Source: an uncultured Bacillales bacterium (GTDB lineage: Bacteria; Bacillota_I; Bacilli_A; RF39; UBA660). Taken from it: a stretch of DNA of 64,000 bases. The notes under the pieces were generated by a model. The model made no database searches. It saw only the letters and a list, made by a program, of their open reading frames with translations, and was not told where the DNA came from. Shown here piece after piece: positions 4,028-62,667 of the stretch (positions are counted from its first letter, which is position 1; each line of letters starts with the position of its first letter). The stretch covers positions 7,034-71,033 of the forward strand of contig CAMOSQ010000004.1 of the NCBI GenBank assembly GCA_946624985.1, in the 5' to 3' direction. The translations under genes and the position numbers were made by a program.

Positions 4028-6082
4028 TTACCTACTTTCTTGCTTATTATTCTTCATATCCATAGTTGCTTCATTAATAGCGTCATCAATAGTCTTAATC
4101 TCATCAGTAATAATACTATAACCAATAGCAGCACCAAAATTATGAGATAAATCCCTAAAATCCTTACTTAACTTTCTAATATAAGAAACAATTTGCTTTT
4201 CATCATAACCAACCATATAAATTAAAAACTCATTACCATTAGTACGCATAATTTCTGTATTAGAAATCTGAGTCTTAATTAATATATTTGCTGCCTCTTT
4301 AATAACTTTATCCCCTTCAGAATGACCATAATTATCATTAATATAAGCAATATTATTTAAATCAACAACAACCAATCCTTGAGGATAAACTAAACTTTCA
4401 TCCCAAGAATCAATATTATCATTCAAATAATTTCTATTTTTAAGAGAAGTTAAAACATCAATATACTTAACCTTATTATCCTTTGGAACAACTACCTTAT
4501 GTTCCTTACCATTTTTCTTATTTTGATATATAAGTACACCAATAAGACCAATAACAACTAAACAAATAAATGTAATAACAAAACCTAAATAACCTTTAGT
4601 TGCTGTTACCTTAACCAATTCAGAATAACCTATATTAGATAATTCTTGACTAGAAACAAAAGATAAATAAAAATTTAAAAACTTTATAAAAATTGCATTA
4701 GACTCATCATTAAAAACTTTAAACGAATAATCAATAGACATATCAAAAGAATAAATAGATTTATAATTATCAAAATACTTAGCACTATAATAATTGTATA
4801 CTTCAGAATCTAAAACAATTAAAGCATCATCCTTAACCTTACCTAAAAGTTCAGAAATACTGGAATATGCTTTAAATTCAACACCCTTACTTTCCAAAAA
4901 ATTTGCAATTTTAGTATTAGAAATAGTAGCAACTTCATTTCCAACCAAAGATTTAACAGAACTTACAGTCACCTTATTACTTGGAAGTGCTAAAACTAAA
5001 ACCTGCTCATCATAATTTGAAATAATATCAACATAAGATGTATATTCATTATTACTTATATTATCAAAAAATATATCAATTTTATTATTGTTAAAATCCT
5101 CAACTAAAGAATTGATATTAGAATAATTCTTATAATCAATATCTATATCAGAAACATCAGAAAATTCACGTAAAAAAGCCTTATTTATACCATAAAATTT
5201 ATCATTAATTAAAGCATCATATGGTCTATTTTCAACATATCCATATACATATCTTTTGCTTTTAAATTGCGCCTTATCCTTATCCTCGATACCAGAAAAA
5301 GTAAAATAACTATTAGAAAAATTCTTATCATAACTATCCTTATACTTTGTTTCTTTCCATTTAGAAAAATACTTAATAATAATTTCATTTAATTTTTCAT
5401 CACTACCTAATCTGATAACATAATCCTGCTTAATTTCATTAATATTATAAGAAATACTTAATCCTTTAGAAACAATTAAATTGTAATTACTAATCTTAGG
5501 TAGCATAATAGCTTCTACTGAAGAAGGAGTAACACTTCCATCATCATTAGTCTTAGATTCCAAACTATTCACCAATTCATCGATAGTAGCAAAAGTATTA
5601 AAATTCAAATTAATACTATCAGTAGCATTTTTGACTTTTTCTAAATCACTTTCTAAAACACCTATTGTCATACCATCTATTTCAGATAACTTGTTATACT
5701 TAATACTATTTTTTGTTAACAAAGCATAGCTATCACTATAAACAAGTACGTCGTTTTCATCTTTTTGAGAAACTACACGAAAAGAATACTCACTCTTTAT
5801 TTCGTCATCCTTTTGAAAAGCTATAGGATTAAAATCAAGCCCTGTAACATCCTCAAAATCAGACAAAAAATCAAACAATATACCAGTTCCATTATAACTA
5901 ATAACAGGTATATCCTTTAAAATCGATATATCAATAACTTTACTCTTATTAGACTCTAGCCATTGCTTTTCTAAAATTGTAAAAGAAGTATTCTTATCTT
6001 GTCTAGTAAACAAATAGATACTGCATAGGATTAAAAAAACAATAACACAAGGTATAATTATAAACTTTTTTTTATTTTTCAT
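4028..6082 (-). CDS. membrane sensor with two extracytoplasmic solute-binding-like regions and a C-terminal degenerate GGDEF domain
   Basis: N-terminal TM segment, a second TM near aa 500, then a GGDEF-type domain (DLNNIAYINDNYGHSEGDKVIKEAA...RTNGNEFLIY) in which the signature reads NGNEF. Confidence 0.7.
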   Translation of the reverse strand: MKNKKKFIIIPCVIVFLILCSIYLFTRQDKNTSFTILEKQWLESNKSKVIDISILKDIPVISYNGTGILFDFLSDFEDVTGLDFNPIAFQKDDEIKSEYSFRVVSQKDENDVLVYSDSYALLTKNSIKYNKLSEIDGMTIGVLESDLEKVKNATDSINLNFNTFATIDELVNSLESKTNDDGSVTPSSVEAIMLPKISNYNLIVSKGLSISYNINEIKQDYVIRLGSDEKLNEIIIKYFSKWKETKYKDSYDKNFSNSYFTFSGIEDKDKAQFKSKRYVYGYVENRPYDALINDKFYGINKAFLREFSDVSDIDIDYKNYSNINSLVEDFNNNKIDIFFDNISNNEYTSYVDIISNYDEQVLVLALPSNKVTVSSVKSLVGNEVATISNTKIANFLESKGVEFKAYSSISELLGKVKDDALIVLDSEVYNYYSAKYFDNYKSIYSFDMSIDYSFKVFNDESNAIFIKFLNFYLSFVSSQELSNIGYSELVKVTATKGYLGFVITFICLVVIGLIGVLIYQNKKNGKEHKVVVPKDNKVKYIDVLTSLKNRNYLNDNIDSWDESLVYPQGLVVVDLNNIAYINDNYGHSEGDKVIKEAANILIKTQISNTEIMRTNGNEFLIYMVGYDEKQIVSYIRKLSKDFRDLSHNFGAAIGYSIITDEIKTIDDAINEATMDMKNNKQESR

Positions 6083-10720: not shown

Positions 10721-11566
10721 TTAATTTAAATGTTCAAAGTCATTTTTATATTCATAACTTAATGAATTATCGCTACTAATTATTGTATCACCCAATGATT
10801 CTTCCATAGAATCTCTTGCAACTTTTGCCACACGTCCACCAGTTCTAGCAATCTTCTTATTTTCTTCTAATCCTAGTGGCCTATGTTTCTTAACTAATTC
10901 CCTCGTAGCAATCTCACCTAAATCAGTTAAAGCAACTTCTATATCTGTCATGTTATCCCTAAGAGATTCTTTTCTTAATCCTTTAAACTCTTTATAGTCA
11001 GATGCATTCATACCAGACCATTCCTTATAAATCTCATTAGTTAAAACCGCATACTCATAATTTTCTTTTATACCAAACTCTTTCCAAACATCAGTTAATT
11101 TATTTCTATTAAGAATGCCATTCAATCTTTTTTTAATCCATTCGTCATCATATCCACGCTTTTTATAATAATTAATAGCTCTATTAATAGCTAACTCAGG
11201 ATCAAACACTTCATCAATTCTCTCACTGCCTAAATTAGCCAACCAAACTTTGAATGGCTCAGCCTTTGGACTAGGAATAGATTCTATAAGTCTCAGTATT
11301 CCTTTTGTATCAAGTACATCAGTCAGATAATTTTTCCCATCTTTGTTAGATTTCATTTTCAGTTGTCCGATATTTTCGGACAACTGACTTCCCTCTTCTT
11401 TTAATTTAAGCTTTAAATCACTCCAATATTTCCTAGATCTACTAGAATTTGTCAACGCCTCTATAACATCAACAACACTGTAATAATAATCACCTTTATC
11501 TTTATCCCATATACTTCTTATTTCATTATCTTCAAATAAATTCGATATAGTTTCTAACTTATTCAT
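10721..11566 (-). CDS. Bro-N domain protein (prophage antirepressor-like)
   Basis: The N-terminus FEDNEIRSIWDKDKGDYYYSVVDVIEALT is Bro-N-like. The gene sits between the core genes rbfA and ruvB. Confidence 0.65.
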   Translation of the reverse strand: MNKLETISNLFEDNEIRSIWDKDKGDYYYSVVDVIEALTNSSRSRKYWSDLKLKLKEEGSQLSENIGQLKMKSNKDGKNYLTDVLDTKGILRLIESIPSPKAEPFKVWLANLGSERIDEVFDPELAINRAINYYKKRGYDDEWIKKRLNGILNRNKLTDVWKEFGIKENYEYAVLTNEIYKEWSGMNASDYKEFKGLRKESLRDNMTDIEVALTDLGEIATRELVKKHRPLGLEENKKIARTGGRVAKVARDSMEESLGDTIISSDNSLSYEYKNDFEHLN

Positions 11567-19104: not shown

Positions 19105-20063
19105 TTTTTCAACCTTCCTTCATAAACTTTTTGTAACTGTGAATTTTCAAATCTTCTCTTCGTAGCATCAGATGAAATTGCAAATAATAAATTTGATGCA
19201 ACATTCTCATCTGAATTAAATTTTTTTAACATCAATGCAATACTATTTCTTACCTGATCAATCTTATTACGAATAGAAGAATCCATATCTAATGGAGTTA
19301 ATGAAAATAAAAAATCAAATATAAAATTATATGGCGTATCATCTTTTTGCCAAGTTTTTCTTAAAGAATCAGGCCATATAGCAACATAAGGCTTTGTTCC
19401 TTCATTAATAGAATTAAATATTTCACTTGAGACCTTTGATAAAACATCAAAAAATTCACTTTCTTTTAAAATATGAATATCAAGTGGTAACCATTTATCA
19501 GGGAAAACACCATTAGCCAAAGATAAAGAAATACTAGCAACATCTCTTACTGTACCAAGAACATCATTATCTGAAGTTTTCATATTTTTTTTATACAAAT
19601 TTTTTTCCAAAGCACTTTTTGCATTATCAAATTGATCATCTTGACAAATCATCCAAATATCTAAATCAGGTAATCTATTAATAACCTTCCTTGGTTTTAA
19701 TTGATCCTCAATTCTATCACACGATTTACAAAAGCACTTTAAATCTGGCATCTTACTACCATTAATACTTAAACATCTATCGCACGACCACTCAAAAAAA
19801 ATAGATTTCATAGCATGTTGTAATAATTCATCATTATATCTAAGTTGTTCAGTAATAACAGGCAAACTAAAATTATGTTCTTCATCAGTAACATAAAAAG
19901 GATAGCCAGTACCAAAAGCTCCACAAAAACATGAAACATTTTTCATACAATCGACAATCTCTTTGATATTCATTTCAATATAATACCTCTTTAAATCTGT
20001 ATTAGTTATTTCAAACAAAGTTGAAGCTTCAGCAGCCATTTGGCATACCTCAATAGTATTCAT
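19092..20063 (-). CDS. hypothetical protein with a zinc-ribbon insert and nucleotidyltransferase-like acidic strands
   Basis: Motifs CDRC-x13-CFCKSC, LPDLDIWMI and LPLDIHIL. ATG at 20063 follows AAGGGGGG. Overlaps the PHP gene by 13 nt. Confidence 0.45.
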   Translation of the reverse strand: MNTIEVCQMAAEASTLFEITNTDLKRYYIEMNIKEIVDCMKNVSCFCGAFGTGYPFYVTDEEHNFSLPVITEQLRYNDELLQHAMKSIFFEWSCDRCLSINGSKMPDLKCFCKSCDRIEDQLKPRKVINRLPDLDIWMICQDDQFDNAKSALEKNLYKKNMKTSDNDVLGTVRDVASISLSLANGVFPDKWLPLDIHILKESEFFDVLSKVSSEIFNSINEGTKPYVAIWPDSLRKTWQKDDTPYNFIFDFLFSLTPLDMDSSIRNKIDQVRNSIALMLKKFNSDENVASNLLFAISSDATKRRFENSQLQKVYEGRLKKWGK

Positions 20064-20164
20064 ATATAAAATTTCCCCCCTTAAAAATTGCAAGTATTAT
20101 ATAATATATTTATATAAAAATCAAATTAAACTTTAAATATGAAAATTTTATTATACTTTGTATC

Positions 20165-32446: not shown

Positions 32447-34399
32447 TTAAGAATTAGCTTCCCATATAGCCTTTAATGTATGGTCCTTATCCTGTACAAC
32501 AGGTGTAGCACTCGTTATATAATATGGTTCATACTCAGTAACAGTATTCCCTTCTTCTATTTGTAAATTATATATTCTTATTCTTGAGTATACACCTGCA
32601 CCATCTTTCAAATATCTATTAGAATATGTATAAAACACATACTTTGATTCAGGCAAATTTACATTTGATTGCGTAGTGAATACTTTTTCAAAATGATATT
32701 TTTCCCCAGCTAATATATAATAACCATCTCCACTCATTAAATAAATACCTGGTTGCGACGCCTGACTATATAAATAAAATCCTAAATTTCCGCTATATTT
32801 TGAGTCATATTCTGGTACACTTATACCTTCAATATCATATGAAATTGAGTATTGAGTATTTGGTTTCAAATTATTTGTAACCCAATCATTATTAAAAGAT
32901 GTTCTTGCCCATGCCTGAAAAGGTATATCATCTCCTATACCTGGAATTTCTGACATAGATTTATCAATTATATTCTTCCCATTCCATCCTTTAAAAGTAT
33001 AACCTTCTCTAGTAGGAACAGGTAACTCTCCATATGCATCATGATAAGATACCTCTTTTGTAGTTTGAGATACTGTTCCACCATTAGGATCAAATGTAAC
33101 AACATACTTTCTCTTATAATCTTGACTAGAAGAATCACTATTTACTATAGCTACTCTAAAAGTAGTATTAGGATCAATTACTTTTGAATTTTGATAATTA
33201 AATATTGAATTACCACCTCTAGTTAAATATAAATTTTCACTAGTTGGAAATGAATTATCATTTGACCAATTATTAGTTTCAGATAATGAATATCCTAAAG
33301 AATATTGATTTTCATTATCCATTATTATAAATTCTTTATTACCAGATAAATTATAAATACCAGTATTATTACCAGTTGAAGAATTATCACTTAAATTTCC
33401 ATATATAGAATTTGTAAGATATGCTAACGCTCCCCACTCACTATTTCTAACCATATGAGTATTAACACCTTTTAATCCATATATATTATTTTGATTTGTC
33501 ATTGAAAGAATCTTATCATTAGCGCTTACATAATCAATATTAGTCCAAGCGGTACCACTTTTAACAATAATACTATCATTACTATTACTAGCCTCATACT
33601 TACCGACCCATATACCAGATAACTCATGATTATTATATGTAAATGCAGGATGAGTTAACCATTGTCCAGGAGATGTTCCTAAAGACTTAGAAGTAGTAAC
33701 ACTTTCAAAAGCAATATTAATAGGAGTAACACTATTAGAACTAAATAACTGATATCTAAATCTAGGAATCCATACAAAATAACCTAAAATATCATCATCA
33801 TTTATAACAGTACCAAATGGTGCCTCTAAATACTCATATCTACTATGAGAATTATCACCATCTTTAGTTTCTTTAACAACAACAGCATTTGCCCAATTCT
33901 TATTCAAATAATTATACCACTTAGAATTAACATCAGCCTTTTTCCAAGAACCATCCTCATAAATAACAGGAATCATATTATCAGCAAGCTCGGGCTTACT
34001 AACAAACTGAATAATTTGAGTACAATCATTCTTATCAACAAGCTCATACTGAAATCCATTATAAGTAGCATTATAAGTCGATTTAACAACATTAGAATAA
34101 TCAATTTCATTACCATTAACATCCTTAAAAGGAGTCTCTAATACACCATCATTAATAAGAGTTTGAACAGGAATACAATAAGTACTACCATTTGCCTCAA
34201 AACTATTAGTATAAAATGCTGAATGATTTTCAATATATACATCAGTTGCATTCGCTAATAACTGCATATTAGCTTCGCTAATTTCACCCTTCTTTTTATT
34301 TATACTAGACGCAATATTAGGTATAACAATCAAAGATATTAAAACAATTAACGTAACAACACTTAAAAGTTCAATTAAAGTAAAACCCTTCTTATTCAT
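32447..34399 (-). CDS. prepilin-type N-terminal domain protein with an FGE-sulfatase/C-lectin-like module, a Listeria-Bacteroides (Flg_new) repeat and a C-terminal beta-rich domain
   Basis: MNKKG/FTLIELLSVV class III signal. GIWVGKYEAS, NSEWGALAYL, GIYNLSGN and TRGG resemble the FGE/SUMF1 fold. YVVTFDPNGGTV...PTREGYTFKGWNG is the Flg_new repeat. Confidence 0.72.
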   Translation of the reverse strand: MNKKGFTLIELLSVVTLIVLISLIVIPNIASSINKKKGEISEANMQLLANATDVYIENHSAFYTNSFEANGSTYCIPVQTLINDGVLETPFKDVNGNEIDYSNVVKSTYNATYNGFQYELVDKNDCTQIIQFVSKPELADNMIPVIYEDGSWKKADVNSKWYNYLNKNWANAVVVKETKDGDNSHSRYEYLEAPFGTVINDDDILGYFVWIPRFRYQLFSSNSVTPINIAFESVTTSKSLGTSPGQWLTHPAFTYNNHELSGIWVGKYEASNSNDSIIVKSGTAWTNIDYVSANDKILSMTNQNNIYGLKGVNTHMVRNSEWGALAYLTNSIYGNLSDNSSTGNNTGIYNLSGNKEFIIMDNENQYSLGYSLSETNNWSNDNSFPTSENLYLTRGGNSIFNYQNSKVIDPNTTFRVAIVNSDSSSQDYKRKYVVTFDPNGGTVSQTTKEVSYHDAYGELPVPTREGYTFKGWNGKNIIDKSMSEIPGIGDDIPFQAWARTSFNNDWVTNNLKPNTQYSISYDIEGISVPEYDSKYSGNLGFYLYSQASQPGIYLMSGDGYYILAGEKYHFEKVFTTQSNVNLPESKYVFYTYSNRYLKDGAGVYSRIRIYNLQIEEGNTVTEYEPYYITSATPVVQDKDHTLKAIWEANS

Positions 34400-34517: not shown

Positions 34518-34772
34518 ATGAAAGAAAACATAGAAAACTATAACTTAGAAAACAAACTAGAACAAGACTTCATCTATGAATTTGCATGTCTAAGACATGA
34601 TTTAAATTTAACACAACAACAAATGGCAGATATATCAAAAGTACTAAGAGATAAAATTGCAAAAATAGAAGCAGGAATATACTCTCCTAATATTAAAAGT
34701 TTATTCAAAATATTAGGGCCACATGGATATACAATCAAAATAGAAAAAATTAAGGAGGAAGACTATGAATAA
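34518..34772 (+). CDS. XRE-family HTH protein
   Basis: HTH LTQQQMADISKVLRDKIAKIEAG. Overlaps the dinD-like start by 8 nt. Confidence 0.78.
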   Translation: MKENIENYNLENKLEQDFIYEFACLRHDLNLTQQQMADISKVLRDKIAKIEAGIYSPNIKSLFKILGPHGYTIKIEKIKEEDYE

Positions 34773-35589
34773 TTTAGAAATTAATAATAAATTTGAGAAT
34801 ATCAAACATATAGATGAATTTGGTAATGATTTTTGGTATGCAAGAGAACTTATGGTTACTCTGGAATATAAAAAATGGGATAAGTTTTGTAATGTAATTA
34901 ATCAAGCAATTACAGCCTGTGAAACTAGTAAAAACAATGTCTCAGACCATTTTCTCCAAGTGGGGAAAATGGTCGATATAGGTTCAAAAACCACAAGAGA
35001 AATATCAGATTATAAACTATCTCGTTATGCTTGTTACTTGATAGTCCAAAATTCAGATTCAAGAAAAAAAGTCGTTGCACTAGGACAAACATATTTTGCA
35101 ATAAAAACAAGAATACAAGAATTAACAGAACAAGAATATGAAACTCTAAGCGAAGAAAAAAAGAGACTATACAGAAGAAATCAAACAAAAAAAGGAAATC
35201 TAGCATTAAACAGAACAGCAGTAAAAAGTGGAGTTAAAAATTTAGCAGAATTCCATAATGCAGGTTATAAAGGTCTATATAATGGTGAAACCGCTAATGA
35301 CATAGCCAAAAGAAAAGAATTACGATACAGAGAAGATATTTTGGATAATATGGGTAGCGAAGAATTAATTGCCAATTTATTTAGAATATCACAAACAGAA
35401 GCAAAACTAAAAAGAGACAACATAGATAATGAGTATACTGCTAACAGTGTACACTATGAAGTTGGAAACAAAATTAGAAATACAATAAAAGAATTAGGTG
35501 GAACAATGCCAGAAGACTTACCCACTCCAGAAAAAAGCTTAAAAGAATTAGAAAAACAAGTAAACAAAGAAAATTTTTCACTAACTTAA
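34765..35589 (+). CDS. dinD: DNA damage-inducible protein D (DinD) family protein, copy 1
   Basis: FWYARELM...KLSRYACYLIVQNSDSRK...GYKGLYNGETA...MGSEELIANLFRISQTE matches the DinD family pattern. Paralog of 59726-60547. Confidence 0.78.
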   Translation: MNNLEINNKFENIKHIDEFGNDFWYARELMVTLEYKKWDKFCNVINQAITACETSKNNVSDHFLQVGKMVDIGSKTTREISDYKLSRYACYLIVQNSDSRKKVVALGQTYFAIKTRIQELTEQEYETLSEEKKRLYRRNQTKKGNLALNRTAVKSGVKNLAEFHNAGYKGLYNGETANDIAKRKELRYREDILDNMGSEELIANLFRISQTEAKLKRDNIDNEYTANSVHYEVGNKIRNTIKELGGTMPEDLPTPEKSLKELEKQVNKENFSLT

Positions 35590-58413: not shown

Positions 58414-59250
58414 CTACTTCACCTTATAAATTGATTCCTTGTGCAAAAAGAAAGTATCAACATTACCAAGCATCTCACTTATAGAATCAAAATACTCTTC
58501 CTTATTATTATCAGAAACACCGTAAAACATGTTCAAATCTTTATTCATATCATCATTAGAAACTAAAAAACTGTTCAAAAGTACATAATCAATACCACTC
58601 TCATTAAAACTAACAAAATCCTTTATTCCATTTAAATAAGAACTAGTATAAACAGTAGTAACAGAAGAATCAACAATAGGATATGTAAATCCTTCTTTAG
58701 TAATATAATTAATACTAGAATCATCAGATAAATCAAAACGATCCAAATAATTTTTCTTCAAATGTCTACGAGAAACAAACATAGGAAAATAACCAAATAT
58801 AGGTACAATTAAACCACAATCACTATTATTCTTAATATCAATTATATCTTTAGAACTAATCTCCTCAGAAAGTAAAGTATAATCTACACCTTTATCCTTC
58901 CAAAAATTAACGCTCATATAATTATTAGTCATATGTTCCTGAGCCCAAACTAAAGGAATATCTAAATCTAATCTTTTAACAATAGATAAAACCGCTATAT
59001 CATAAAAAAATACACCCTTAACATCCAATTTAGACAATCTAACTAAAATACTTTCCAATAACTCTAAATCAGAACTATGCATATTCTTATTCAAAGAAAC
59101 AAAAATCTCCTTAGAAGAAGATAAACTCTCAACCTCCTCTATAGAATAATAAATAGGCATATTAACAGAAAGTCCATCTATTCCTATTAAATAAGAATCA
59201 CACTTATAATCAAAATTTTTATCACTAGGAATCAACATCAACTTAGTCAT
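58414..59250 (-). CDS. peptidase U32 family protein, short paralog (YrrN type)
   Basis: Directly upstream of, and adjacent to, the U32 gene, with divergent U32-like sequence. Synteny matches Bacillus yrrN-yrrO. Confidence 0.7.
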   Translation of the reverse strand: MTKLMLIPSDKNFDYKCDSYLIGIDGLSVNMPIYYSIEEVESLSSSKEIFVSLNKNMHSSDLELLESILVRLSKLDVKGVFFYDIAVLSIVKRLDLDIPLVWAQEHMTNNYMSVNFWKDKGVDYTLLSEEISSKDIIDIKNNSDCGLIVPIFGYFPMFVSRRHLKKNYLDRFDLSDDSSINYITKEGFTYPIVDSSVTTVYTSSYLNGIKDFVSFNESGIDYVLLNSFLVSNDDMNKDLNMFYGVSDNNKEEYFDSISEMLGNVDTFFLHKESIYKVK

Positions 59251-59293
59251 AAAATCACCTAAAAAATATTATACAAAAAAAGACTTAAAAAGT

Positions 59294-59530
59294 CTATAAT
59301 TTGTTTATTTCATCAATTGTAAGCCCTGTTATTTTGGATATGGTTTCTATATCAATATTCTCATCCAAAGATTTTTTAGCTATTTCAATTTTTCCTTCTT
59401 GTTTTCCCTCTTTTTTCGCATCAACTATTGCCATCGCACTACAATATTCATCTAACTGTTGTTTTTCTAACTCACTCATAAATATAGGATCACTACTTAA
59501 ACTCTTTACTGTTTCAACTACTTTTTTCAT
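59294..59530 (-). pseudogene. C-terminal fragment resembling Rpn-family (PD-(D/E)XK putative transposase) proteins
   Basis: AKKEGKQEGKIEIAKKSLDENIDIETISKITGLTIDEINKL matches the repetitive EG...IA..LL..G..IE.I...TGL..EEI..L tail of that family. No nuclease domain lies upstream. Confidence 0.4.
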
Positions 59531-59725
59531 AATATCATCACCTTAACAATTGTTCGATTGATATTATATCATTTCACTACAAAGTAATCAATGGTTTTAC
59601 ACATAATTTTGTGAACTACCCATCAGCTAAAGTTAATGTGATTGCGACTAAATTTCTTTCAAAAGGTTCAAATTCATCCCTCTACTTGTAAAAGATAGAG
59701 CAATTCTTTGGCTTTTTAGTTAAAA

Positions 59726-60547
59726 TTATCTCTCATTAATTTTAATTTCTTTTTCTAACTCCTTTAAACTTTTATTAGATGTTAGTAACTTCTCTGGCAT
59801 AGTACCACCATTCTTAGCTATAACTTCTCTAATATTTTTTCCAATATTATAATGTGTATCATTTGCACTATTTTCTCCTTTTATATTATCGTTAATAAGT
59901 TTTTCTTCTGTTTGAGTTATTCTAAATAAATTAGCAGCCAATTCTACACTTCCCATATTATCTAAGATATCTTCTCTATACCTCAAATTCTTCCTTTTAG
60001 CTATTTCATTAGCTGTTTCACCATTATATAAACCTTTATAACCTGCATTATGAAATCTGTCAAAATTCTTAACTCCAGCATTTTTAGCAGCAATATTCAA
60101 TGAATAATTTCCTTTTTTAGTTAAATTTCTTTGATAAAATCTCTTCTCATCTTCAGTGAGACAACTATATTCCATTTCACTTAATTCTTGTTTTCTTGTT
60201 TGAATCGCAAAATATGTTTTAGCTAGAGCAATTACTTTCTTCCTGGGATCGCAATTTAAAACTATTAAATAACACGCATATCTTGTCAATTTATAATCCG
60301 TTATTTTTCTAGTAGTTTTTGAACCTACTTGAACCATTTTATTGACGTCAATAAAATGGTGTAAAATATTATAATTACTATTCTTACAATTGTTCATAGC
60401 AATTTTAATAATTCTATGAAAATTTTGCCATAACGAATATTCAAACACTATCATTAACTCTCTAGCATACCAATATTCATTACCATTTTCATCTACACGT
60501 TTAATATCTTCAAACATTTTTTCTGTATACTCTTTTATTTCATTCAT
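59726..60547 (-). CDS. dinD: DNA damage-inducible protein D (DinD) family protein, copy 2
   Basis: Collinear with 34765-35589 at both protein and nucleotide level (YWYARELM, KLTRYACYLIVLNCDPRK, GYKGLYNGETANEIAKRK). Confidence 0.78.
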   Translation of the reverse strand: MNEIKEYTEKMFEDIKRVDENGNEYWYARELMIVFEYSLWQNFHRIIKIAMNNCKNSNYNILHHFIDVNKMVQVGSKTTRKITDYKLTRYACYLIVLNCDPRKKVIALAKTYFAIQTRKQELSEMEYSCLTEDEKRFYQRNLTKKGNYSLNIAAKNAGVKNFDRFHNAGYKGLYNGETANEIAKRKNLRYREDILDNMGSVELAANLFRITQTEEKLINDNIKGENSANDTHYNIGKNIREVIAKNGGTMPEKLLTSNKSLKELEKEIKINER

Positions 60548-60602
60548 TTATTTCACCTCAAAATATATCTTACTTCATAGAAATAAAAGTTCCTTAAAAA
60601 AA

Positions 60603-60623
60603 CAAAAAAAATCGTAAAAAACT
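60603..60623. repeat. direct repeat caaaaaaaatcgtaaaaa(a)ct, copy 1 (part of terminator hairpin atcgtaaaaa-ctt-tttacgat)
   Basis: Matches 62068-62087 apart from one extra A. Confidence 0.7.
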
Positions 60624-60656
60624 TTTTACGATTTTTATTATTAAAATAACAAACAT

Positions 60657-61950
60657 TTATTCAGAAACAATTTGAACAGTTCTATCACCAACTGTAACAG
60701 TACCTGTCTTAAATGATTCTCCACTTGTTCCTGTAATTATTCCATTCCAATCAAATGCTTTATCTGTTTTATTAATTATTTTAGTTAAAGTATCAATTTG
60801 AAACGCAGTAGATCCTATTTCAATTATACTACTAGGTATTACAATATCTTTAATTGTTGTATTTTTAAATGCAGCAGCACCTATTACTTTAACATCATTT
60901 GTTAAAGTAATATTATTTAGATTTCTACTACCAGCAAATGCACCTGCTGGAATTTCATTTAAAGCAATCGTTAAAGATTTTATATTACTTGAGCCTGAAA
61001 AAATACTCACACTAAAATTAGTCAATCCAGTTCCAATCAATACTTTTTCCAGAGATGAAATATTAGCAAACGCTCCTCCTTGTATTGTTTCAACACTATT
61101 TGGTATTGTGAGTTCGTTTATATGAACTCCCATAAAAGCAGAACCATCTATTGTAGTCACACTGTTCGGAATAGATAACTCTGTTAGTCCTGACATGTTA
61201 AATGAAGAAAACCCGATTATACTTACATTACTTCCTATTTTAACACTACTTAAAGATGATGTATTAAGAAACGCTATATCATTAATTTTCTTCACATTAT
61301 CTAACATAATCACACTTGTAATTATATTATTATTAAGAAAAGCTCTTTGCCCTATTTCAGTAACAATATTCCCTTCAGTATCCTCAATAGGAATAATAAT
61401 ATCAGTAATACTTCCATCATATTCATCAGTATTAAAACCAGTTATTGAAACATAACCATTTTCATCCGGTTCAGAATATGTAAACCAATTACTTGGTGAA
61501 GTTTCTATATTACCATTTTTTGTTGTTATAGGTGAATTTATTGATTCATCATAAGTTACTACAAAATCTCCAAACTTTAACGAATAATCAATTACTTTCC
61601 CTTTTTCTAATTTAATCCATCCTTCTGTTGGTTTTGTACCACTTACAGAAAAATCTTCTGGTAACTCTGATACATCAAATAATCCTGTTGGTAATTCTTG
61701 TGATGCATCAGCTACAGACTTAGTCAAATAATATTTATTAACTGCATCTTTAAAACCATACGCTGAATCTTTAGCTGCTCCTTCGCTAGAATTATCAATT
61801 ATATTAAGTATAATTGGTACTGTAATTACTGCAATTATTGCTAGTATTACTATTATCGCTAATAGTTCTATTAGTGTGAAGGCATTACGTTTATTTATAA
61901 TACCCCCCCCCTAAGTTGCTATTAGCAAATATTCTTCTTTCCTGTTTCAC
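60657..61950 (-). CDS. prepilin-type N-terminal domain fused to BspA-type leucine-rich repeats; start uncoupled by a G9 tract (phase-OFF or frameshift)
   Basis: The open frame 61910..60657 encodes IINKRNAFTLIELLAIIVILAIIAVITVP... then LRR_5-like repeats (IPNSVTTIDGSAFMG, IPNSVETIQGGAFAN, ...). The only SD-equipped start (GGAGG, 9 nt, GTG at 61950) is in the +1 frame with 9 G and in frame with 8 G. Confidence 0.7.
61903..61911. repeat. C9 (G9 on the coding strand) homopolymer
   Basis: Read directly from the sequence. It is the longest G/C run I noticed in this AT-rich window. Confidence 0.95.
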
Positions 61951-62067
61951 TAATATCATCCTCCATTCTAATAGAAGCTATATACAACCAGGAAATTATC
62001 ATTTATAGTCTTCTACTATATAAATTTTAACACATTACAAACCTTATATCAATATAAAATTTATAAG

Positions 62068-62087
62068 CAAAAAAAATCGTAAAAACT
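62068..62087. repeat. direct repeat caaaaaaaatcgtaaaaact, copy 2, overlapping the stop of the O-methyltransferase gene
   Basis: Matches 60603-60623. Confidence 0.7.
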
Positions 62088-62667
62088 ATGATTTTCTTCT
62101 ACTTATACCTATACCATCACCTATAGAAATAAACTCAGTATCAAACTCAAGATTATTCTTTAAAAAATCAATGTACTTAACAATCTTACCAACAAGTTGT
62201 CTAGTATTTCTATTAGTAATAGAATCCATATTATCAACCATACCATGAAAACTAAGATTATCAGATATAATAACGCCATCTTTAGCTAAATTACTTTTAT
62301 ATTTTTCAAAAAACTTAATATACTGAGCTTTAGCAGCATCAATAAATATAAGATCAAAATCACCAGAAATATCACACTCTAAAGCATCAGCTAAAATAAT
62401 TTCAATTCTATCATTTAAACCAAAATCATTAATATTTTTAACAGCCTCATTATATCTTAGAGTATCTCTTTCAATAGTAACAACTTGAATATCAAGAGAT
62501 ACCTGAGCCATACATATAGCAGAATAACCTATTGCACTACCAACCTCAAGTATCCTCTTAATATCATTTTTTTTTATAAAATCAGTTAAAAAATCTATAC
62601 CATCACTTAACATGATAGGTATATTATTTTCATGAGCATATTCCTCAATTACTCGTAAACATACCAT
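62086..62667 (-). CDS. SAM-dependent O-methyltransferase (YrrM/TrmR type)
   Basis: EVGSAIGYS (SAM motif I), DLIFIDAAK, and synteny with mltG and the U32 pair. Confidence 0.82.
   Translation of the reverse strand: MVCLRVIEEYAHENNIPIMLSDGIDFLTDFIKKNDIKRILEVGSAIGYSAICMAQVSLDIQVVTIERDTLRYNEAVKNINDFGLNDRIEIILADALECDISGDFDLIFIDAAKAQYIKFFEKYKSNLAKDGVIISDNLSFHGMVDNMDSITNRNTRQLVGKIVKYIDFLKNNLEFDTEFISIGDGIGISRRKS

Follow-up and report, generated by a model that had tools for sequence, protein, structure and literature searches.

The opa and pilC genes of Neisseria are the closest described systems, in working principle, to the locus considered here. At opa, CTCTT repeats within the region that encodes the leader peptide gate several paralogous loci (PMC3960869), while at pilC1 and pilC2 a pilus-associated adhesin is turned on and off by a poly-G tract of 9–20 residues near the 5' end of the coding sequence (PMC5953494). 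Our subject is a run of nine G residues (G9) on the minus strand of a 64,000-nucleotide (nt) stretch of DNA from an uncultured Bacillales bacterium (the window; 27% G+C), lying at the 5' end of a gene for a pilin joined to leucine-rich repeats (LRR). We think it likely that this run is a slipped-strand contingency tract, placed in the class III signal peptide part of a modular type IV pilin that carries an LRR putative adhesin. It would then act as a reversible on/off switch, OFF in the allele present in the window; comparison of related loci supports such a switch at the level of the gene family, and for the window locus itself we infer switching.

As with Opa, a repeat in the coding part of a cleaved leader would set the frame of a surface adhesin, with slipped-strand switching at several independent paralogues. 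Opa, however, has a pentamer repeat, a Sec (class I) signal peptide and an outer-membrane beta-barrel, and belongs to a Gram-negative pathogen, whereas the tract in the window is a homopolymer in a class III (prepilin) leader of a spore-forming rumen Firmicute (so called because SpoIVA, SpoIIP and GPR are encoded in the window). As with pilC, poly-G lies within the reading frame of a pilus-associated adhesin, and Jonsson et al. are said to have placed the pilC tract, in 1991, in the signal-peptide region. Yet PilC is not a pilin, has neither a class III signal peptide nor a pilin fold, and is present in one or two copies rather than as a large paralogous family. In Campylobacter jejuni, poly-G/C runs are rare in an AT-rich genome, concentrated in genes for surface structures, and variable in length. 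The contingency genes of that organism differ in that they serve glycosylation, the capsule and flagellar modification, do not carry the tract in a signal peptide, and are not those of a Firmicute.

The protein has its own parallels. Modular type IV pilins such as PilB and PilC of Streptococcus sanguinis likewise have an N-terminal pilin module with a grafted ligand-binding module, but the leader of PilB has 7 residues while that of the window pilin has 23 and would carry the switch, and no phase-variable tract has been described for modular type IV pilins. BspA-type LRR surface proteins of gut and oral bacteria (4fs7, 4h09, 4gt6, TpLRR and PcpA) share the fold and Pfam family of the C-terminal module, but are anchored by means other than a pilin module. 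Simple-repeat phase variation is textbook material in Neisseria, Haemophilus, Campylobacter and the mycoplasmas but barely documented in gut and rumen Firmicutes, and in Gram-positive commensals it is mostly invertible promoters to which phase variation has been attributed up to now. Our literature search found no description of a poly-G switch in a prepilin leader or in pilins of Firmicutes. A simple-repeat contingency locus is a known kind of element, while its position in a prepilin leader and its occurrence in this lineage are unreported.

The G9 locus and its predicted product

The features of the locus are given below, coordinates in this text being positions in the window unless another sequence is named; a slash in a protein sequence marks the predicted cleavage site.

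62024..62052, minus strand: promoter-like site, with −35 TTGATA (62052..62047), a 17-nt spacer, TG (62032..62031) and −10 TAAAAT (62029..62024)
61960..61964, minus strand: Shine-Dalgarno sequence GGAGG, read directly, with a 9-nt spacer to the GTG at 61950..61948
61891..61950, minus strand: frame of the leader in the G9 allele; start codon GTG, VKQERRIFANSNLGGGYYK, stop TAA at 61893..61891; 19 codons
61903..61911, minus strand: G9 homopolymer (C9 on the plus strand), the tract that sets the frame; ON expected with G8 or G11
60657..61910, minus strand: body frame, 417 codons plus stop; GGGIINKRNA/FTLIE..., pilin module followed by BspA-type LRR module
61866..61883, minus strand: predicted prepilin-peptidase site; Ala(−1) GCC 61883..61881, Phe(+1) 61880..61878, Glu(+5) 61868..61866
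61518..61874, minus strand: pilin module; helix alpha-1 (residues 13-67) and beta-sheet (residues 76-131) of the 417-amino-acid (aa) translation, from AlphaFold secondary structure
60771..61484, minus strand: LRR solenoid of BspA type; residues ~143-380, PF13306, a regular beta-strand ladder in the model
60603..60636, minus strand: terminator-like hairpin downstream of the pilin-LRR gene, AAAAATCGTAAAAA-GT-TTTTTACGATTTTT and then a T run; inverted repeat I1, direct-repeat family D1

An earlier note on this DNA had proposed a short frame of 19 codons, opened by GGAGG 9 nt before the GTG at 61950 and crossing G9 (61911..61903) on the way to its stop, and every coordinate of this arrangement holds on the minus strand. 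The leader frame reads VKQERRIFANSNL, then three Gly codons from the nine-G run, then YYK, before ending at the TAA at 61893..61891. The body frame follows an in-frame TAG at 61913..61911 and meets no further stop for 417 codons, until the TAA at 60659..60657. Also as the note had claimed, its first ATG, GTG or TTG is the TTG at 61727; it lies inside helix alpha-1 of the AlphaFold model. Frame arithmetic likewise bears out the claim that G8 or G11 would restore the gene: removing one G, or adding two, fuses leader and body into a protein of 430 aa, with a fused leader of 23 aa.

The G9 tract exceeds chance expectation, since it is the sole G/C run of at least seven in the 64 kb, where at 27% G+C only 0.011–0.015 runs of at least nine are expected. 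It reaches the length of 9 or more that PhasomeIt applies to poly-G/C tracts (PMC5953494), and it sits between the functional start and the body of the open reading frame (ORF), so placed that its length modulo 3 decides the product. The only other G/C run of at least six in the window, at 20075..20080 (minus strand AAGGGGGGAAA), stands 11 nt before an in-frame ATG at 20063 and resembles a Shine-Dalgarno sequence; the mechanically assigned ORF start there, the TTG at 20093, is probably too far upstream.

Homologous loci carry GGAGG or AGGAGG at an equal distance from their own ATG or GTG. The TTGATA-17-TAAAAT element named in the earlier note is indeed the top-scoring match of a promoter scan (62052..62024), with 10 of 12 consensus positions and a TG before the −10 hexamer, but such matches are not enriched in the AT-rich window (32, against 23 ± 5 in shuffles), and we regard it as a consensus match only. 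At the other end of the gene, the hairpin at 60603..60636 was missed by a simple terminator scan because its stem is AT-rich.

The identity of the product as a pilin with LRR, also put forward in the note, is upheld by domain matches and by structure prediction. The long frame matches PF07963 (N_methyl) at 23.5 bits against a cut-off of 21.2, and PF13306 (LRR_5, BspA-type) with E = 2e-45 and 154 bits; the InterPro counterpart of this BspA-type LRR family is IPR026906. The AlphaFold model, for which 29 homologues were used (predicted local distance difference test, pLDDT, 93.1; predicted template modelling score, pTM, 0.83), has a 55-residue N-terminal helix, a small beta-sheet and a regular LRR solenoid. 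The best structural match of the solenoid is 4fs7 (E = 2.7e-11), and 4h09, 4gt6, TpLRR (6mlx) and PcpA (4cp6) also match; these are gut-bacterial LRR surface proteins (4fs7, 4h09, 4gt6), the TpLRR protein of T. pallidum, and pneumococcal PcpA.

The N-terminus has the form expected of a type IV pilin, a hydrophilic class III leader whose last residue is small (Gly, rarely Ala), followed by F/M-T-L-I/V-E with Glu5 and ~20 hydrophobic residues (...NKRNA/FTLIELLAIIVILAIIAVITVPIIL), and the FTLIELLAIIVILAIIA motif is invariant across 26 homologues. Position −1 is Ala in the window pilin, and G or A interchangeably in its paralogues; Strom and Lory reportedly found, in 1991, that prepilin peptidase tolerates Ala there. 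The 23-aa fused leader falls inside the published class III range of 6-26 aa (PMC4471445). The pilin fold itself, a long helix packed on a beta-sheet, is present in the predicted model only (pLDDT 93). A C-terminal non-pilus domain grafted on a pilin module, here evident from PF13306 and the solenoid matches, is the mark of a modular pilin, a concept set out by Raynaud et al. (2021), who list the pilin plus LRR architecture (PMC8179133). On sequence and model together, the predicted product is a modular type IV pilin with a C-terminal BspA-type LRR. We regard it as a putative adhesin, which would be cleaved at its leader and assembled into a pilus.

The tract across the pilin family

The commonest leader in the family is short (MKKKKNA/FTLIE). 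There is, however, a pilin subfamily with a long leader, MK..K[LF][AT]NS.., which aligns to the upstream frame of the window. The relatives of the window pilin carry the labels uncultured Bacilli, Erysipelotrichaceae or Tenericutes. Long leaders are in frame with the pilin in P0011 (MKKQKFANSNPERSIINKRNAFTLIE), P0012 (MKERKFANSNLRREIINKCNAFTLIE, with ..NLRREIINK..) and P0027 (MKNKKTKLANSNLGGGQLNKAFTLIE), and also in P0024, P0037 and P0108. At the DNA level, P0011 and P0012 have 12 nt (CCAGAGAGGAGT and TTAAGGAGGGAA) where the window has 13 (TTAGGGGGGGGGT), placing the window one base out of register with its intact relatives. K[LF][AT]NS is kept in 19 long-leader loci, in which variation is greatest at third codon positions. 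Given this conserved motif with its third-position variation, and the in-frame homologues, the upstream frame is, on comparative evidence, a translated leader and not an accident.

A family scan limited to one genome per species yielded 78 loci. Poly-G occupies the position of the window's tract in 16 distinct loci (the window included) from at least eight assemblies, with lengths from G6 to G11. The tract leaves leader and body in frame in six of the 16 (L005 and L006, both G10; L013, G6; L089 and L093, both G8; L092, G9) and out of frame in ten (the window, L086, L087 and L091, all G9; L002 and L014, both G7; L010, L018 and L029, all G11; L017, G10). The ON share of 6/16 is close to the one third expected if length drifted freely. 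Behind the tract, eight of the ten OFF alleles, that of the window (407 aa) among them, have an undamaged mature ORF of 400-540 aa; of the other two, L029 shows no stop over at least 360 aa before its contig ends, and L002 is short, with 159 aa. The window and the loci together amount to 534 kb of AT-rich DNA, and of the 18 G runs of at least seven found there, 16 are on the coding strand, no more than 45 nt upstream of an FTLIE motif.

Two genomes allow paralogues to be compared. The rabbit-gut metagenome-assembled genome (MAG) Lapin-018__bin91 (CANRPB01) has more than 25 loci with the pilin N-terminus (L005-L031, L036, L039, L054, L064 and L068), at least nine of them with tracts of G6-G11, and here the C-terminal modules are Cys-rich rather than LRR. 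The G run comes directly after AAT AGT AAC CTA in every long-leader copy of this MAG and is found in no short-leader copy. Many of its loci lie at contig ends, which suggests that the conserved 5' end breaks the assembly. In GCA_017941985.1, two paralogues have G8 (L089, ON) and G9 (L087, OFF); they are identical just downstream of the tract, while their upstream leader codons differ slightly.

A single orthologous locus was compared between samples. It has G8 in GCA_017941985.1 (L089) and G11 in two other samples (L096 and L097), with 98.8% identity over 2.67 kb and identical flanks to the tract, and its proteins P0027 (GGG) and P0246 (GGGG) differ by one Gly. This is a direct length polymorphism at a tract of the pilin family. 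The proposal of slipped-strand phase variation made in the earlier note is therefore supported at the family level, by 16 loci spanning G6-G11 in both ON and OFF states, by intact ORFs behind OFF tracts, and by the G8 and G11 forms of one ortholog.

The out-of-frame alleles leave a trace in protein databases. Proteins beginning 'MGGG...' are such alleles, their start having been called on a codon that overlaps the tract, and the gene calls P0001/P0245, P0023, P0041 and P0059 are OFF alleles started either at the internal TTG (356 aa in the window) or at a tract-overlapping codon. The miscalled starts hide the pilin signal peptide, and several such proteins have no recorded PF07963 match. Since gene callers truncate or misstart OFF alleles in this way, the adhesin repertoires of MAGs are under-called.

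One G run of this kind was seen outside the pilins. In L079 (positions 4437..4480 of that locus, from the MAG CAKOMW010000002.1, uncultured Bacilli), a gene of another kind begins with ATG AAC AAA TAT TCG TCT and then G10. It lies just downstream of a 143-aa pilin, and its product is longer than 417 aa and anchored in the membrane. In the assembly the gene is out of frame, whereas G9 would put it in frame. Gating by poly-G in this lineage thus extends beyond prepilin leaders.

Taking these data together, we envisage the switch in the window to work as follows. Transcription would begin from the upstream promoter-like site, and translation from the GTG at 61950. With G8 or G11, the ribosome would read MKQERRIFANSNLGGG(G)IINKRNA/FTLIE... 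to give the 430-aa prepilin, and prepilin peptidase would cut after Ala23, removing the leader together with the tract-encoded Gly; because that Gly is lost with the leader, the length of the tract would never change the mature protein. With G9, as sequenced, translation would stop after 19 codons and no pilin would be made (OFF). Replication slippage of one G in either direction (G9 to G8 or G10) would toggle individual cells between OFF and ON. The pilin-LRR protein would be built into a type IV filament, probably at its tip, where it would bind ligand, and with several gated paralogues carrying different C-terminal modules in related genomes, the set of pilus adhesins on display would vary by cell.

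Beyond this single gene, we suggest tentatively, as something that could well be otherwise, that the long leader, comprising the Shine-Dalgarno sequence, start, K[LF][AT]NS and poly-G, is a portable 5' switch cassette that uncultured rumen and gut Bacilli place before many paralogous modular pilins differing in their C-terminal modules, which would give each cell a stochastic, combinatorial display of adhesins. If the single-gene switch is real, uncultured Bacilli vary their displayed pilus adhesins cell by cell with the mature protein unaltered, which is relevant to the ways in which commensals respond to shifts in substrate, host, phage or immunity. If the cassette is real as well, it amounts to an Opa-like contingency system on the type IV pili of Gram-positive commensals.

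Alternatives to a reversible switch

A number of observations weigh against a working switch at this locus. The locus is held in three records (the window, JGI 3300002641 and AUXO01), which are identical, all G9 and all from one sheep-rumen dataset, so that no heterogeneity of tract length is seen among them. A metagenome-wide pattern scan with AATAGYAACYTAGGGGGGG returned the same locus again (AUXO01, G9) and three chance matches, with no independent allele, and look-ups of the truncated protein and its neighbours led to the same dataset and to one near-identical strain that lacks the island described below. No ON allele of the pilin-LRR gene was found among 5.8 billion clustered proteins. 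Nor did comparison of 44 window ORFs with Pfam (most ORFs of at least 100 aa) reveal type IV pilus machinery or a prepilin peptidase (PilB/PilC/PilD-type) anywhere in the 64 kb. The OFF loci in MAGs could partly reflect consensus or assembly noise at long G runs. Finally, the two closest leaders, L084 and L085, have tracts that are interrupted, fixed and in frame. The earlier note had named interrupted tracts in relatives, together with reads of one uniform length, as a ground for refuting the switch, and these two leaders partly bear that out; because many other relatives keep a pure tract, they do not refute it.

The first alternative is that the gene is a pseudogene with a fixed frameshift, carried along as dead cargo on a small accessory island and now subject to neither selection nor switching. 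The island is as follows.

59292..62067, minus strand: strain-variable island of ~2.8 kb with three genes: pilin-LRR, DinD/Bro-N (60547..59726) and an Rpn gene of which a C-terminal fragment is present (59530..59294)

A second strain, L095 (ENA ERZ12302822), has 8 mismatches to the window over the first ~4.08 kb (~99.8% identical) but lacks the island, and joins the methyltransferase terminator straight to the gene starting at 59250. The pilin-LRR gene could therefore be a decaying passenger, absent from a near-identical strain and lying beside a truncated Rpn gene; the want of an ON allele in databases and of pilus genes nearby points the same way. We nevertheless consider this explanation unlikely. 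Nothing is damaged in the promoter-like site, the Shine-Dalgarno sequence, the start codon or the mature ORF of 407 codons, and this in DNA of 27% G+C, where open frames decay fast; the sole lesion is a change of 1 nt in a hypermutable run, which is reversible by nature. Moreover, eight of the ten OFF loci in the family are likewise otherwise intact.

The second alternative is that G9 is a sequencing or assembly error in a homopolymer, the true tract being G8 and the gene intact and always expressed. With a single dataset behind the three records of the locus, the length is without independent confirmation, and long G runs are harder for any platform. Against this, the AUXO01 sheep-rumen metagenome was sequenced on the Illumina HiSeq 2000 from unamplified libraries. 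Within the long ORFs of the window there are 18 A/T runs of at least eight, and none of the 18 breaks the frame, which indicates that the window assembly is not prone to homopolymer errors. Independent assemblies of relatives also show both in-frame and out-of-frame lengths, including the G8 and G9 paralogues within one MAG. An error of this kind is thus improbable.

A third explanation, which we judge to be decidedly improbable, is that the G9 allele is expressed by recoding, either through a +1 ribosomal frameshift on GGG GGG GGG or through slippage of RNA polymerase to give G8 transcripts, with the tract tuning the level of the product instead of switching the gene. Long homopolymers are slippery for ribosomes and RNA polymerase alike. 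In eight of the ten OFF alleles the tract has one G in excess, which would call for the same +1 shift, although this bias is not significant, and a stable local fold surrounds the tract (z = −4.4). A programmed signal should, however, hold one frame relation, while in this family six of 16 loci are in frame and the remainder include both offsets (L014 and L017 would need an added G). The shift site has neither a stop nor a rare codon, Rfam gives no match and the consensus structure is weak; neither a fixed frame relation nor a conserved slippery or stimulatory signal extends across the homologues. The variation in frame relation between loci speaks against a programmed frameshift as the main mechanism; some slippage of the ribosome or polymerase on G9 may occur.

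The fold mentioned above was obtained from the single sequence 61859..61928 (minus strand). Its stem sets leader codons GCUAAUAG against CUAUUAGC, where L-L-A is encoded, and the G run against GCCUUCAC, so that the hairpin encloses both the tract and the premature stop; it is the best fold in 14 of 19 loci. Comparative support is weak, as RNAalifold keeps 4 pairs, with little true covariation and several broken pairs, and an Rfam scan of 60500..62300 found nothing relevant. We have therefore set aside a conserved RNA structure around the tract, given the weak consensus and broken pairs, though the single-sequence folds are stable and similar. The hairpin, in which the codons for A-N-S have those for L-L-A as partners and the G run is matched by those for A-F-T, may contribute to the switch. 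Two smaller elements were noticed near the ribosome-binding site: a small stem, CUUCUAU/AUGGAGG at 61960..61977 (minus strand), which would cover the Shine-Dalgarno sequence, and a motif upstream of the latter, TTCTATTAGA, which recurs in L084-L087, L092 and L093.

Lastly, the idea that the G run is itself a Shine-Dalgarno sequence for a non-canonical start at ATT 61901 or ATA 61898, giving a short leader MINKRNA/FTLIE and making the 19-codon frame irrelevant, recalls the Shine-Dalgarno-like run at 20080..20075 with its in-frame ATG and the prevalence of short MKKKKNA/FTLIE leaders in the family, but is highly implausible, as ATT and ATA starts are very rare, and is contradicted by homologues that read in frame through the tract position from an upstream ATG or GTG with its own GGAGG and by several loci, such as L089 (GGT CAA TTA AAT AAG GCC), that have no possible start after the tract.

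Neighbouring genes

Within the island, the DinD/Bro-N gene matches NF008573 at 327 bits, and the Rpn fragment, of a nuclease/transposase family, matches TIGR01784. A terminator-like repeat, AAnCAAAAAAAATCGTAAAAA, occurs at 62065, 60600 and 59271.

The window encodes a second pilin-like gene at 32447..34399 (minus strand), a protein of 650 aa with a short leader (MNKKG/FTLIELL), a Listeria-Bacteroides repeat and no G tract. Adjoining it is a DinD/Bro-N paralogue at 34765..35589 (plus strand), which shares 64% identity with the DinD/Bro-N gene next to the LRR pilin, so that the pairing of a pilin with DinD recurs. A third Bro-N gene lies at 10721..11566 (minus strand).

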